Below the pieces are notes generated by a model that was not told where the DNA came from, searched no databases, and was given only the letters and a program-made list of their open reading frames with translations. Source: Mycobacteriales bacterium (GTDB lineage: Bacteria > Actinomycetota > Actinomycetes > Mycobacteriales > SCTD01). From it: 44,951 nucleotides of DNA. This document shows positions 1 through 5,595 of this stretch, piece by piece. The position numbers and the translations under genes were made by a program. The number at the start of each line of letters is the position of its first letter. Position 1 is the stretch's first letter. The stretch is from positions 1-44,951 of the forward strand of contig JBKJOO010000198.1 of assembly GCA_046595615.1 (NCBI GenBank), read 5' to 3'.

Positions 1-618
1 GAGCATGACCGGCTTGTGCGAGGAGCCGACGGCCTGCAGCAGCGGGAAGTTCTGCATGTTGCGGGTGCCGATCTGCAGCATGTCGGCCCATTCGGCGACG
101 AGCGGTACGTCGGCGGCATCGACGACCTCCGTGACGATCGGCAGGCCGGTCTGTTCGCGGACCTCGGCCAGGATGCGCAACCCTTTCTCGCCGAGGCCCT
201 GGAAGGCGTACGGGCTCGTCCTGGGCTTGAAGGCGCCGCCCCGCAGCAGGGTGGCGCCAGCAGCTTTGGCCATCTCGGCTGCGGCGAGGGTCTGTTCAGG
301 GGTCTCGACGGCGCAGGGACCGGCGATCAGGGTGAAGGTGCCCGGGCCGATCGGGACGCTGCCGACGGTGACGGTGGTGGCCTCTGGGTGGTTCTCCCGG
401 CTGACCAGCTTGTAGGGCTTGCTGACCCGGACCACCTCGCCGACCCCCGGCATCGCCCGCAGGTTCAGGCCCTGGAAGGCCACGACATCGCCGACCAGCC
501 CGACGATCGTGCGCTGGACACCGCGACTGACGAAGGCAGCGCCACCGGCCGCCTCGACGCGCGCCACGACGGCGTCGATGAGCTCGGGGGCAGCGCCGGG
601 GCGCATCACGACGACCAT
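1..618 (-). CDS. aroF: 3-deoxy-7-phosphoheptulonate (DAHP) synthase, class I-beta with N-terminal regulatory domain; partial, runs off left edge
   Basis: Not in ORF track; manual translation from ATG at 618: [12 protein letters not shown]...IAGPCAVE...[19 protein letters not shown]...[14 protein letters not shown]; IAGPC and KPRTSPY are class I-beta motifs. Confidence 0.93.
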
Positions 619-631
619 GGGAAAGCCTCTC

Positions 632-668
632 AGGAACGAAGAGAGCCCCGGGCAGGTGCCCGGGGCTC
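632..668 (-). terminator. Attenuator terminator hairpin upstream of aroF
   Basis: Perfect inverted repeat GAGCCCCGGGCA/TGCCCGGGGCTC (643-668) followed on the minus strand by pyrimidine-rich TCTTCGTTCCT. Confidence 0.7.
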
Positions 669-685
669 GTGGTGGTCAGGGTGCG

Positions 686-742
686 TCAGCAAGCACCCGA
701 CCGGGAGACCCGGGTCGGGAAGCCATACCACTTCGTCAGCAC
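686..742 (-). CDS. Putative aromatic amino acid-sensing leader peptide (MLTKWYGFPTRVSRSGAC)
   Basis: 18-aa GTG..TGA ORF with clustered Trp, Tyr, Phe codons; TAGGTT -10 box 6 nt before GTG; lies ahead of the terminator and aroF. Confidence 0.75.
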   Translation of the reverse strand: MLTKWYGFPTRVSRSGAC

Positions 743-798
743 GCGGCGAACCTACCCCACCGGACGGGAGGTGCGCGGCGCGAGGGACACTCATGTGC

Positions 799-1446
799 GT
801 GACCACGCCGTTCAGCAGGCTCGGGGCCAGGAAACGAGCCGAGGGTGTCGGGGCCGACCGCCTCCCGCCGGGCCAGTACATCCCCCGCGGCTGGCCTGTC
901 CTGCATTACGGACGGGTGCCCACCTTCAAGCCGGACACCTGGGACTTCAAGGTTTTCGGCCGGACGGCGTCCGGTGACCAGCTGTCGTGGTCGTGGCCGG
1001 AGGTCGGCCACCTGCCCCGGACCACCGTCGGCGCGGACTTCCACTGCGTGACCAAGTTCTCCCTGCTGGACTGCACCTGGCGCGGCATCGCCACCAGCAC
1101 CTTCCTCGACCTCGTCCCGCCAGCCGCAGACGTCAGCCACGTGATGGTCTGGGCGGAGTACGGCTACGGCGCCAACATGAGGCTCGAGGACTTCGCCTCG
1201 GCGCAGGCGCTGTTCGTGACCCACAAGGATGGCGAGCAGTTGACCGCCGAGCACGGTTACCCGTTGCGGCTCGTCGTCCCGCATCTGTACGCCTGGAAGG
1301 GGCCAAAGTGGGTCCGCGCGGTCGAGTACATGTCGCAGGACCGCCGCGGGTTCTGGGAGGAGCGCGGCTACCACAATCGGGCTGACCCGTGGCAGGAGCA
1401 GCGCTACTCCTACCAGGAGGAGCCGGGCGACGGTCCCGAGCTCTGA
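799..1446 (+). CDS. Sulfite oxidase-like molybdopterin-binding oxidoreductase
   Basis: RLPPGQY, DFHCVTKFS, HGYPLRLVVPHLYAWKGPKW, GFWEERGYH motifs; start GTG 799 (or ATG 793); the N-terminal part of the listed 16..1446 ORF is antisense to aroF. Confidence 0.88.
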   Translation: MTTPFSRLGARKRAEGVGADRLPPGQYIPRGWPVLHYGRVPTFKPDTWDFKVFGRTASGDQLSWSWPEVGHLPRTTVGADFHCVTKFSLLDCTWRGIATSTFLDLVPPAADVSHVMVWAEYGYGANMRLEDFASAQALFVTHKDGEQLTAEHGYPLRLVVPHLYAWKGPKWVRAVEYMSQDRRGFWEERGYHNRADPWQEQRYSYQEEPGDGPEL

Positions 1447-1937: not shown

Positions 1938-2813
1938 TCAGACCTCGAGCCGGCCGGTGGTGCCCTCGGCGCCGTGCCGCGGGCCGACCTCGGTCAGCAC
2001 CATCGCGGCGAGCACGAGCACGGCGCCGGCAGCGGTGCGCAGCCCGAACGCCTCGCCGGCCACGCCGACCGCGAACACCCCACCGAACACCGGTTCCATC
2101 GTCATCACGACGGCGGCGCGGGTCGGCGCCATATGGGCCTGTGCCCAGGTCTGCACGACGAAGGCCAGCGCGGTGGCGGCCAGCGAGGTGAGCGCCAGCG
2201 CCCCCCAGACACCGGCGTCGGGCGGCATCGCGAGGCCGCCCGGAACCGCCACGACAGCGCTCAGCCCGGCGACGGTGAGCAGCTGGACGACGGCCAGCCC
2301 GAACACGTCGTACGACGAGGCATGGCGGCCCAGGCCGACGATGTGCAGCGCGAAGGCGGCCGCACAGCCCAGCGTGAGCAGCTCGCCGGTGCCGACCGTG
2401 AGGCCGTGCAGCGAGAGCAGCCCGAGGCCGATGGTGGCGAGGGCGACCGCAGCCCAGGCCGCGCGGCCGGGTGGTTCGCGTAGCAGCACCGCCGCCCCGA
2501 GCGGGGTGAGCACCACGAACATGCCGGTGACGAAGCCGCTGACCGCCGCGCTGGTGGTCTGCAGCCCGAGCGTCTGCAGCAGGTAGCCGGCGCCGAGCGC
2601 GAGCCCGAGCACCATCCCGACGCGGCGTCCCCTGCTGCCGAGGCGGGCCACGGCCCGGGGGCGCAGCAGGATCATGGCAAGAGCGGCGAGGGCGAACCGC
2701 CAGGCGAGGAAATCGGTGACCGGCATCTGCCGGACGGCATCCTTGACGACGACGAAGGTGGAGCCCCAGACCGCCGTCACGCCGACCAGGGCCAGGGTGG
2801 GCCGGTCAGGCAC
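1938..2813 (-). CDS. EamA/DMT family transporter
   Basis: VWGSTFVVVK start, about 10 hydrophobic segments, MTMEPVF motif. Confidence 0.9.
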   Translation of the reverse strand: MPDRPTLALVGVTAVWGSTFVVVKDAVRQMPVTDFLAWRFALAALAMILLRPRAVARLGSRGRRVGMVLGLALGAGYLLQTLGLQTTSAAVSGFVTGMFVVLTPLGAAVLLREPPGRAAWAAVALATIGLGLLSLHGLTVGTGELLTLGCAAAFALHIVGLGRHASSYDVFGLAVVQLLTVAGLSAVVAVPGGLAMPPDAGVWGALALTSLAATALAFVVQTWAQAHMAPTRAAVVMTMEPVFGGVFAVGVAGEAFGLRTAAGAVLVLAAMVLTEVGPRHGAEGTTGRLEV

Positions 2814-2831
2814 GGGCGGCTGCGGCCACGC

Positions 2832-3692
2832 TCAGGCGTCGCGCAGGGAGCACAGGAGCTCGATGTCGCGGCGGTGCGCGGCCGCGTCGCCGGGGGTCTC
2901 GACGATGACCGGGACGTTGCGGGTCGCCGGGTGGCGGAACAGCTCGGCAAACGGGTCCTTGCCGATGTGCCCGTCCCCGATGCCGGCGTGCCGGTCGCGG
3001 GCCGAGCCGAGCGGGTCCTTGGAGTCGTTGGCGTGCACCAGGGCGAGCCGGCCCCGGCCGACCGCCTTGACGAGCGCGTCGAGCGTGCGCTTCATGCCGC
3101 CGGGCGCCGCGAGGTCGTGCCCGGCGGCGAAGGCGTGGCAGGTGTCCAGGCAGACGCCGAGCCGGGGATGGTTGTCGAGCTGGGCGAACCACGCGCCGAG
3201 ATCTTGCACCGTCGCGGCGAGGGCCTGCCCACCGCCGGCGGTCGGCTCGACGAGCAGGCGGGGACCGTTGTCCGGGACCTCGTCGAGCACGGGCAGCAGG
3301 CGCTCCCGCAACTGCGCCAGGGCCACGTCGCGGTGCGCGCCGGCGACGGCGCTGCCGGCGTGGACGACGACGCCGGCCGCACCGATGGCGGCGCCCCGTC
3401 GCAGGGCGTGCCGGACGGCCTCGATGCTCCGGTCGAGTGTCACCTGGGTCGGTGAGCCGAAGTTGACGAGATAGGGGGCGTGCACGAAGGCCGGGATCCG
3501 GTCGTCGGAGCAGCGCCGCCGGAAGGCCTCGTCGTGCGCCGGGTCGCCCGCGCTCGGCGCCCAGCCCCGGGGGTTGGACACGAAGACCTGCACCGCGGCG
3601 GCGCCGATCTCGCGGGCGTAGGCCAGACCCTTCACCAGGCCCCCGGCGACGGGGACGTGACTGCCCACGGCGGAGGGCTTGCGGGGTGGCAC
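2832..3692 (-). CDS. nfo: Endonuclease IV (AP endonuclease)
   Basis: GSHV, QVFVSNPRGW, HAPYLVN, CLDTCHAFAAG, HANDSK, DRHAGIG, ETP motifs. Confidence 0.93.
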   Translation of the reverse strand: MPPRKPSAVGSHVPVAGGLVKGLAYAREIGAAAVQVFVSNPRGWAPSAGDPAHDEAFRRRCSDDRIPAFVHAPYLVNFGSPTQVTLDRSIEAVRHALRRGAAIGAAGVVVHAGSAVAGAHRDVALAQLRERLLPVLDEVPDNGPRLLVEPTAGGGQALAATVQDLGAWFAQLDNHPRLGVCLDTCHAFAAGHDLAAPGGMKRTLDALVKAVGRGRLALVHANDSKDPLGSARDRHAGIGDGHIGKDPFAELFRHPATRNVPVIVETPGDAAAHRRDIELLCSLRDA

Positions 3693-3717
3693 GTGGGAAG
3701 GGTGGCAGACCGGGTGG

Positions 3718-5595
3718 TCAGAACGCGTACAGGGTCACCGTCGAGCCGCGTCGGACCATGGTGCCGCCACCGGGGCTGGTCCGCAGGACCAGACCCGGGC
3801 CACCGGGGAAGGCCAGCACGTTGGTCTTCAGACCGAGTGCCTGCAGGGCGCCGACCGCCCGGTCCCGGTCGTCGCCGGTCAGGTCGGGGAGCTTCACGAG
3901 GTCCGGTCCCTTGCTGACGACCAGGGCGACGGTCGACCCGAGGTCCACCGCCCCGCGGTTGGGCGACTGGTCCAGCACGAGGGCCTTGGCGACGGTGTCG
4001 TTGAACATCTGGCTGGTGGTCACGACGAAGCCGGCCTTGCCCAGGGCGGCCGTTGCGGCAGCGATGTCCTTGCCGCGTACGTCGGGGACGGCGACCTGTT
4101 GCACGCCCTTGCTGACGACGAGCGAGACGGGGGTGCCCGGCTTGAGCCGGCTGCCGACCGCCGGGTCGGTGCGAACGACGATGCCCTTGGCCACCGTCCG
4201 GGAGAACACCAACGCCGTGCTCCGGTAGGCCAGGCCGGCCGTGCTGAGCGCCGACCGGCTGGCCGGTTCGGTCGACCCGACGACGTCGGGCACCCGCCGG
4301 CGGTCCGGGCCGAGGGAGAACACGAGCGTCACGGCGCCGTGCCGGCCGATCCGGGCGCCCGGTCGCGGCGACTGGTCCAGCACCTCCCCGGCCGGGATCG
4401 CTTCGCTGCTGACCGCCCGGCCGAGCCGGATCCCGAGGCCCCCCTTGGTGAGCACCTGTCGGGCGGCCGCCTTGTCCAGGCTCAGCACACCGGGCGTCTT
4501 GGTGAACCGCACCTCCCCGAGGTAGTAGCCGCCGCCGCCCGCGAGCAACGCCAGCAGGGCGACGACGGCCAGGGCGATGCGTCCCCGCCGCCGTCGACGT
4601 GGCCGGTCCGGACCCGCCACGGTCGACGGCCGCGCGGGGGACGCGGTCACCGCCGCCCCGACCGGCTCGGGCCGAGGCACGACCAGGGTGCGGTGCAGCG
4701 CACCGGACCGGCGTACGACGGTGAGGTCGGTCTGCAGGGCGGACCGCACGGCCCGGAGCTCGGCCAGCAGCGCGCCGCCGTCCGCTGGCCGGCCGGCGGG
4801 GTCGCGCCGGGTAGCCCGGAGCACCAGGGCGTCAACCGCCGGTGGTAGCTGCGCGACGACGGTGGACGGGGGTGGCACCTCGCTGCGGACGTGCTGCAGG
4901 GCCACCGACAGGGGCGTCTCACCGGTGTAGGGCTGAAGTCCGGTGAGGGCCTCCCACAGCAGGATGCCGGCGGCGTAGACGTCGGAGCGGGCATCGGCGC
5001 GGCCCGTCTCGACCTGCTCGGGCGCCAGGTAGGCGACCGTGCCGATGAGCAGGCCGGTGGTCGCGGTGAGGTTGCTCGCCTCGACCGCCCGGGCCAGGCC
5101 GAAGTCGGCCACCTTGATCCGGCCGTCGTCGGCGAGCAGGACGTTCTCGGGCTTGATGTCGCGGTGCACGAGCCCGGCGGCGTGCGCGGCGGCGAGCGCG
5201 ACGAGCACCGGTTCCAACAGTTCGAGCGCCTGGGCCGGCGGCAGCGCGCCGCGCTCGCGCAGCAGGTCGCGCAGGTTGCGGCCGCGGACGTGCTCCATGA
5301 CGAGGTAGGCGAGTCCGGTGCCGGCGTCGGTGCCCTGGTCGTAGACGGCGACGACCTCGGCGCTGGACAGTCGCGCCGACGCCCGCGCCTCACGGGTGAA
5401 GCGGGCTACGAACTCCGGGTCGTCGGCGAGGGCCCGGTGCATCACCTTGACCGCCACGGTGCGGTCGAGCCGGGTGTCGTTGGCGAGGAAGACGGTCGCC
5501 ATGCCGCCGCGGGCGATCAGGCTGTCGAGGCGGTACCGGTCGTCGAGCAACCGCCCCACCAGGGGGTCCACGAGTTCCTCGGTGGTCATCTCCAT
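3718..5595 (-). CDS. pknL: PASTA-domain Ser/Thr protein kinase (PknL/Stk1-like)
   Basis: IARGGMA, VAVK, HRDIKPEN, DFGLAR, single TM, about four PASTA repeats; near an Rv2175c homolog as for mycobacterial pknL. Confidence 0.85.
   Translation of the reverse strand: MEMTTEELVDPLVGRLLDDRYRLDSLIARGGMATVFLANDTRLDRTVAVKVMHRALADDPEFVARFTREARASARLSSAEVVAVYDQGTDAGTGLAYLVMEHVRGRNLRDLLRERGALPPAQALELLEPVLVALAAAHAAGLVHRDIKPENVLLADDGRIKVADFGLARAVEASNLTATTGLLIGTVAYLAPEQVETGRADARSDVYAAGILLWEALTGLQPYTGETPLSVALQHVRSEVPPPSTVVAQLPPAVDALVLRATRRDPAGRPADGGALLAELRAVRSALQTDLTVVRRSGALHRTLVVPRPEPVGAAVTASPARPSTVAGPDRPRRRRRGRIALAVVALLALLAGGGGYYLGEVRFTKTPGVLSLDKAAARQVLTKGGLGIRLGRAVSSEAIPAGEVLDQSPRPGARIGRHGAVTLVFSLGPDRRRVPDVVGSTEPASRSALSTAGLAYRSTALVFSRTVAKGIVVRTDPAVGSRLKPGTPVSLVVSKGVQQVAVPDVRGKDIAAATAALGKAGFVVTTSQMFNDTVAKALVLDQSPNRGAVDLGSTVALVVSKGPDLVKLPDLTGDDRDRAVGALQALGLKTNVLAFPGGPGLVLRTSPGGGTMVRRGSTVTLYAF

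Follow-up and report, generated by a model that had tools for sequence, protein, structure and literature searches.

The window analyzed here, a stretch of 44,951 nucleotides from a Mycobacteriales bacterium (contig JBKJOO010000198.1 of assembly GCA_046595615.1), raises the question of how its DAHP synthase gene, aroF, is controlled, since the 174-nt intergenic gap between this gene and its divergent neighbor carries, as read from the sequence, a set of attenuator elements on the minus strand. A first-pass annotation made from the letters alone had claimed a TAGGTT hexamer, a 6-nt spacer, a GTG-started ORF, alternative hairpins, a terminator and aroF, in this order; all of them were recovered on the minus strand at the positions given below. 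We consider it probable, at roughly 0.8 on the strength of sequence and comparison, that the element attenuates transcription of a type I-beta DAHP synthase gene through ribosomes translating a leader peptide.

Organization of the aroF locus

The regulated gene occupies positions 1..631 on the minus strand, comprising a Shine-Dalgarno sequence GAGAGG (631-626) upstream of the ATG start codon (618-616) and the first 206 codons, the coding sequence extending past the contig end. The product belongs to the type I-beta DAHP synthases and has a ferredoxin-like domain at its N terminus; it matches the Pfam domains DAHP_snth_FXD (PF18152, 1.7e-19) and DAHP_synth_1 (PF00793, 3.3e-35), and among solved structures it is closest to full-length phospho-2-dehydro-3-deoxyheptonate aldolases, 1rzm (E 3.1e-58) being one example. 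The enzyme encoded by aroF of Corynebacterium glutamicum is of another DAHP synthase subtype. The divergent neighbor, which starts at 793 on the plus strand, is a molybdopterin oxidoreductase-domain gene (PF00174). Farther upstream on the minus strand lie an EamA-like transporter ORF (1938-2813), an ORF of 286 aa (2832-3692) and a Ser/Thr kinase-like ORF (3718-5595), the C-terminal half of which is a long extension past the kinase part; in several relatives without a leader, aroF directly follows a homologue of one of the ORFs from this 1938-5595 stretch.

A putatively leaderless ORF with aromatic control codons

The leader ORF (742-686, minus strand) has 18 codons from a GTG start (742-740) to a TGA stop (688-686) and encodes MLTKWYGFPTRVSRSGAC. 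Its codons read GTG CTG ACG AAG TGG TAT GGC TTC and so on to TGC TGA, in which TGG (Trp), TAT (Tyr) and, after GGC, TTC (Phe), the 5th, 6th and 8th codons (719-730), are the putative control codons. Classical leaders carry runs of control codons; the window leader has one codon each for Trp, Tyr and Phe. The ORF is preceded by the 6-nt spacer CGCCGC (748-743) and by TAGGTT (754-749), a -10-like hexamer of the form TANNNT that is recognized by its sequence and its conserved spacing. An in-frame TAG within this hexamer lies 9 nt upstream of the GTG, which is therefore the first possible start codon. The position of TAGGTT 6 nt before GTG 742 implies a leaderless transcript that would start at or next to this codon, a reading drawn from the conserved spacing between TANNNT and the start together with published Streptomyces lividans data. 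In that organism the -10 consensus is TANNNT and seven of the eight leader peptides tabulated in the accessible text are transcribed leaderless (PMC8079986). A scan of positions 400-1000 with an E. coli-type promoter model returned no promoter, this model being uninformative for actinobacterial promoters.

Such ORFs are rare in the genome itself. Over 3.8 Mb (477 contigs, both strands), only five ORFs satisfy the rule of TANNNT, 5-9 nt, an ATG, GTG or TTG start, 8-45 codons and at least three aromatic residues within 7, and only the window ORF among them has a terminator and an aromatic-pathway gene downstream. An 83-codon ORF on the minus strand (630..881) runs over the leader in another frame; it was set aside as a mechanical ORF of GC-rich DNA, the frame conserved by relatives being that of the aromatic ORF.

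RNA from this region is represented in public data by a relative of about 95% identity, in which the leader Phe codon TTC is replaced by a Tyr codon TAC at window position 720, so that the aromatic count is kept. Two metatranscriptome runs from a single study contain contigs of this relative that extend over 47-785 and 168-719, break off ahead of the divergent gene and take up again at 865 and 823; the first reaches 43 nt upstream of the proposed transcription start, but the contigs are unstranded and cannot define ends. In two DNA-like runs, contigs span the intergenic region. The public contigs neither confirm nor exclude a start at 742, nor do they show termination.

Conservation of the leader upstream of orthologous aroF genes

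The 206 N-terminal residues of the enzyme served as the query against one genome for each prokaryote species, and of the 518 relatives obtained the best 80, belonging to the Frankiales, the Streptosporangiales, Nocardiopsis, Actinomadura, Nonomuraea, the Nocardioidaceae and others, were used. A leader was called at a locus if a small ORF with at least two aromatic residues within 7 starts 5-9 nt after TANNNT. By this rule, a leader is present in 64 of the 81 upstream regions (the window together with these 80 relatives), in 62 cases with at least three aromatic residues, whereas only 23 of 1620 mononucleotide shuffles (five with at least three aromatic residues) and none of the 81 reverse complements pass; the short upstream ORF enriched in end-product codons that characterizes an attenuator is thus found at this locus far more often than composition would give. 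When the -10 rule was not imposed, the same 62 loci were found, and TANNNT stands 5-9 nt before the start in 62/62. The closed ORFs of the 81 regions have 497 start codons in all; 65 of these are preceded by the hexamer, and nearly all of the 65 belong to the leaders. No leader was found by this rule in the remaining 17 of the 81 regions (L006-L008, L013, L014, L016, L018, L022, L036, L037, L039, L040, L055, L056, L058, L060 and L074); in several of these loci, aroF lies close behind another gene.

The first-pass annotation had proposed that the upstream regions of orthologous aroF genes be aligned for Trp, Tyr and Phe codons, and these codons indeed turned out to be conserved: within the first 16 residues, 51 of the 64 leaders contain all three amino acids, nine contain Tyr and Phe, two Trp and Tyr, and two Trp and Phe. 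Their order varies, with WYGF, FWFWFGY, YFFWF, FRYGPW and YWF among the arrangements, as illustrated by the leaders MQTQWYGFPDRDSRPGAC, MLQSWYAYPTRDSRSGAV, MQLRAEFRYGPWPGVL... and MRQQFWFWFGYRPGSRTVARQTLR, and further by MRTAWSFWYGDGPVRTDRLHALR, MRNVVYFFWFDQPGRLVCQTLR and MQRNFWRFYGYRPD..., all from public records. In the closest relatives, changes in the aromatic codons are either synonymous or yield another aromatic residue (TAT/TAC, TTC/TTT, and WYAY in L005), and no peptide conservation is seen beyond the aromatic cluster and the RNA-constrained part. Composition being kept while order varies, selection appears to act on the presence of the codons and not on the peptide sequence.

Terminator between the leader and aroF

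An intrinsic terminator, GAGCCCCGGGC-ACCT-GCCCGGGGCTC (668-643, minus strand), separates the leader ORF from the structural gene, as is characteristic of an attenuator. It has a perfect 11-bp stem with 10 GC pairs and the loop ACCT, and is followed by the tail TCTTCGTTCC (642-633), which is T-rich but weak and interrupted. This hairpin is the one site returned by a terminator scan of positions 400-1000, for which 0.1 site would be expected from shuffles. The 151-nt stretch 610-760 also folds better than most of its shuffles (z -2.67; 3/200 shuffles as good). The terminator lies in the 5' region of aroF, in the gap between two divergent genes, and no gene ends there that would need one, so that its place fits a role in aroF control. 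An origin of the hairpin as a dispersed repeat was ruled out, because the genome holds only three such hairpins, counted as occurrences of the terminator core GCCCCGGG..CCCGGGGC, and one match of the covariance model described below.

Alignment of the 64 leaders with MAFFT and RNAalifold yielded a single consensus helix, which is the terminator, with 10 pairs, five of them showing pair-keeping changes on both sides. This result bears on the possibility that the leader ORF does sense aromatic supply but that the output is something other than termination, the hairpin acting as a stabilizer or processing site, or the ribosome-binding site of aroF being sequestered. The weak T-tail, the distance of only 24 nt from the hairpin to the aroF ATG, and a minimum-free-energy fold of 610-760 that pairs the leader start with the aroF start region all agree with such an output; the last pairing, however, is not recovered as a consensus by RNAalifold among the 64 leaders, and over the 64 loci the GC-rich hairpin and the T-rich run behind it are retained, with covariation, so that we regard this possibility as unlikely.

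Distribution of the element and its chorismate mutase-linked siblings

A covariance model (R1) was built from the 64 leaders. In the genome of the window its one match is the window itself; beyond it, R1 matches 82 of 151 genomes sampled evenly from the Actinomycetes (58 of 103 genera), the weakest matches, which comprise the hairpin only, probably being plain terminators. In 28 of the best 30 R1 loci, the match immediately precedes an AroF homologue and has a leaderless aromatic ORF; three of the 28 (L091, L096 and L108) are from genomes flagged as unpublished, and 25 of 27 hold when these are left out. For 40 further R1 regions, the downstream gene as judged by tblastn is an AroF homologue in 17, a chorismate mutase in 10 and neither in 13. 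Most of these 13 matches are weak (11 at E > 1e-6) and probably just terminators. Two full-length R1 matches, L118 (in G027, 49 bits) and L134 (in G137, 42.5 bits), have neither an AroF or chorismate mutase gene within about 1.3 kb downstream nor an ORF that passes the leader rule.

Together with L100 and L111, the 10 chorismate mutase-linked regions make up 12 sibling copies (L100, L111, L116, L117, L120, L124, L125, L127, L128, L131, L136 and L140) that precede a small chorismate mutase of the intracellular type; in these the terminator core recurs, along with a leaderless aromatic ORF. The enzyme assignment is based on Pfam CM_2, which exceeds its cut-off for L100 (29.2 bits) but not for two others (23 and 20 bits), and on chorismate mutases of the Rv0948c type in the PDB, matched at 1.6e-12 to 6.9e-12. 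The leaders in this group are of the types ..TFVFTYG.RP.GCHGRAA, VTTA.EFFYGYR.PVAS, MSTQRFYGHRIPV.. and VTRSTFYFYGSGRVR; all 12 contain Phe and Tyr and none contains Trp, whereas Trp is present in 35 of the 44 AroF-linked leaders of the same sample (25/28 and 10/16). The 12 copies are not 12 independent events, as they represent perhaps three or four lineages. Chorismate mutase serves only Phe and Tyr, and DAHP synthase all three aromatic amino acids, which suggests that the codon content of the leader tracks the products of the regulated step. The occurrence of Phe and Tyr without Trp may be taken as a natural control and fits the sensing of charged tRNAs. The original proposal of an unannotated leaderless Trp/Tyr/Phe leader and terminator that attenuate DAHP synthase is thereby strongly supported by comparison, both by the 64 of 81 loci and by a codon set that follows the enzyme.

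These siblings also bear on whether the ORF could be a functional micropeptide unrelated to aroF control, for instance an aromatic-rich RiPP precursor. Very small aromatic-rich precursor ORFs do exist in actinomycetes, where they give rise to biaryl-linked tripeptides according to the accessible text of one report (10.1101/2020.07.21.214643). The ORF considered here, on the other hand, is always followed directly by a gene for DAHP synthase or chorismate mutase with the terminator in between, no gene for a modifying enzyme adjoins it at the window locus, and its peptide shows no conservation beyond the aromatic cluster and the part constrained as RNA, all of which leave a micropeptide function hardly credible.

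Alternative hairpins and the candidate antiterminator

Two hairpins can be drawn between the control codons and the terminator. Hairpin A (719-696, minus strand) is CCCGA-C-CCGGG TCT CCCGG-TCGGG with the outer arms CCCGACC and GGTCGGG, and local hairpins equivalent to it are predicted in relatives. Hairpin B (702-674) pairs GGTCGGGTGC (702-693) with GCACCC-T-GACC (684-674) and holds the leader stop codon in its loop; a hairpin around the leader stop codon is predicted in 13/13 folded leaders (the window and 12 loci), with a different sequence each time. The first-pass annotation had regarded A and B as the alternative states of the switch. That they are mutually exclusive stands, because both use the same GGTCGGG; that their alternation would by itself decide termination does not, since B stops at 674 and the terminator begins at 668, so that B does not overlap the terminator and alone is unable to prevent termination. 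No consensus helix for A or B came out of the MAFFT and RNAalifold analysis of the 64 leaders, in which these two hairpins align poorly across clades.

Folds of the whole leader always keep the very stable terminator and thereby hide any switch; for this reason, antiterminators were sought in folds of transcripts cut just before the terminator 3' arm, with the first aromatic codon occupied by a ribosome. In 12 of the 13 leaders (the window and 12 loci), the terminator 5' arm pairs in these folds with a CCCGGG-containing segment after the aromatic codons, and the predicted helix encloses the hairpin with the leader stop codon. In the window, the candidate antiterminator 5' arm is CCCGGGTCTC (714-705, minus strand), which forms 9 of 10 pairs with the terminator 5' arm GAGCCCCGGG (668-659) and encloses hairpin B. 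This placement is found in 56 of the 64 leaders vs. 44% of trials in which the ORF part was shuffled, a moderate enrichment; the duplex energy over the 64 leaders is not better than that of shuffles (median z -0.95; 6/64 at p<=0.05). Two further features point to a constraint on the leader at the RNA level: the CCCGGG core is kept across a change of frame, reading ACC CGG GTC in the clade of the window and CGG CCC GGN in most relatives, and segment and arms vary together between clades, the leader segment being GGACCC in the clade with the terminator arms GGGTCC/GGACCC and all three being GGGCC/GGCCC elsewhere. The likely candidate for the antiterminator, though on weak statistics, is 714-705 with 668-659. 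Hairpin A contains both this arm and the 5' arm of B, and in this model would likely serve as an anti-antiterminator and pause hairpin.

The retention of the terminator core and CCCGGG at the nucleotide level despite the change of reading frame could also be read as the mark of an attenuator that binds a ligand or a protein, in the manner of a riboswitch, a T-box or TRAP, and in which the small ORF is incidental. Yet the ORF stays open with a fixed distance between -10 hexamer and start in 62/62 loci, the content of aromatic codons is kept while their order varies and tracks the regulated enzyme, and the terminator is the only conserved helix found. A cmscan of positions 500-900 on both strands against Rfam returned seven matches at E<=10, all far below the gathering score (the best, ftsZ-DE, with 22.4 bits vs. 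a gathering score of 72.2), and hence no leader, T-box or riboswitch family at threshold. We consider such an attenuator very unlikely and return to the leader-peptide attenuator below.

The context of the leader stop codon is a separate observation. In 45 of the 64 leaders the stop is TGA followed by C (688-685 in the window), often preceded by the codons CTG CGC, which may reflect RNA structure around the stop or a context of slow termination.

Proposed mechanism

The ORF, its control codons, the -10 spacing and the terminator, with the conservation of each, are taken directly from sequence and comparison; from these we infer where transcription starts, that the ORF is translated, which segment acts as the antiterminator and how the switch responds to each amino acid, as follows. 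Transcription would begin at or next to GTG 742, and the leader ORF would be translated without a 5' UTR. If charged tRNA-Trp, tRNA-Tyr and tRNA-Phe are ample, the ribosome would proceed to the TGA in the loop of hairpin B, where it would cover B and separate the arm 714-705 from the terminator 5' arm; the terminator (668-643) could then form, and most transcripts would stop before aroF. Should the ribosome instead stall at TGG or TAT, and possibly at TTC, it would mask the outer part of hairpin A and allow B to form, and the freed CCCGGGTCTC could pair with the emerging GAGCCCCGGG, by which the terminator would be blocked and aroF transcribed. If there is no translation, hairpin A (719-696) would hold the antiterminator arm, and termination would prevail in this case as well.

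Phe sensing is doubtful in this model and its least secure part, because TTC is the last aromatic codon and a ribosome stalled on it would mask some of the antiterminator arm. The sensing of three amino acids by single codons is plausible and is supported by the contrast with the chorismate mutase-linked leaders. For the whole set of loci, we lean narrowly toward an Actinomycetes-wide homologous family of leaderless attenuators with a modular aromatic codon code (Trp, Tyr and Phe before DAHP synthase, Phe and Tyr before chorismate mutase), in which an antiterminator hairpin enclosing the stop codon is sterically blocked by the terminating ribosome.

Comparison with known attenuators

Leaders that combine several amino acids are known from the ilv and thr operons. 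The further claim of the first-pass annotation that one leader sensing three amino acids is unlike the classical single-amino-acid leaders therefore overstates the novelty, multi-amino-acid leaders being textbook knowledge and a Phe-Tyr-Phe leader, aroR, being a precedent as far as the accessible text of its descriptions goes (PMC4046766, PMC11802643). In Corynebacterium glutamicum, aroR lies upstream of the DAHP synthase gene aroF (Neshat et al. 2014; PMC11802643, PMC4046766, PMC7356990, accessible text), and Phe limitation alone is described as effective there, Tyr supply being reportedly without effect despite the Tyr codon (PMC11802643, accessible text). It resembles the window element in being a short mixed-aromatic leader before an actinobacterial DAHP synthase gene, one at which, according to these accounts, stalling raises transcription; as described there, the two leaders being compared by description only, aroR differs in having no Trp codon. 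The aroR element was swapped for a constitutive promoter in a producer strain, as stated in the accessible text of PMC7356990, which suggests that the window element is a similar engineering target.

The enterobacterial leaders trpL and pheL (PMC11802643, accessible text) follow the logic proposed here for the window element, with control codons, a terminator, a competing antiterminator and an outcome set by the position of the ribosome. They differ from it in that the window transcript is apparently leaderless, in that it has single codons for three amino acids where they have runs of one, and in that the proposed antiterminator of the window is a long hairpin enclosing the leader stop codon; in addition, the window has no Rfam leader match. 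The leaders of Streptomyces lividans TK24 (trpL1, leuL, ilvL and others; PMC8079986, accessible text) are actinomycete attenuators with which the window leader shares TANNNT, an imperfect U-tract and, putatively, an ORF at the 5' end of the transcript; none of the eight leaders tabulated there belongs to the common aromatic pathway or to chorismate mutase. Seliverstov et al. 2005 presented candidate actinobacterial leader-peptide attenuators for trp, branched-chain and cys genes and, in the accessible text, state that no conserved RNA structures were present upstream of Phe and Tyr operons (PMC1262725); an element of the window type is not among the attenuators reported in that text. No description of this actinomycete leader family was found in Rfam or in a full-text literature search, to which most subscription journals are outside reach. 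The element is widespread in actinomycetes and apparently undescribed there, and it most likely works by a mechanism that is classical and not conceptually new.

If the proposed mechanism is true, many actinomycetes, including the industrially and pharmaceutically important Streptosporangiales, Nocardiopsis and Actinomadura, would control at the RNA level how much flux enters the shikimate pathway, a single leader integrating three aromatic end products. The DAHP synthase-linked leaders (Trp, Tyr and Phe) and the chorismate mutase-linked ones (Phe and Tyr, no Trp) would provide a clean natural test of the idea of a codon sensor, and the window would exemplify an unannotated gene and terminator missed by annotation pipelines and Rfam.

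A second DAHP synthase gene in the same genome

On contig C369 (locus L082, about 1100-1520), the genome encodes a further DAHP synthase, which is a type II enzyme (PF01474, E 9.7e-191). An aromatic leader was looked for before this gene, and none was found. Its GTG start codon lies 7 nt after TAGCCT, so that the gene itself may be leaderless, and about 300 nt upstream of it there is a short tandem repeat of about four copies of the 9-nt unit GGCTGACCG.
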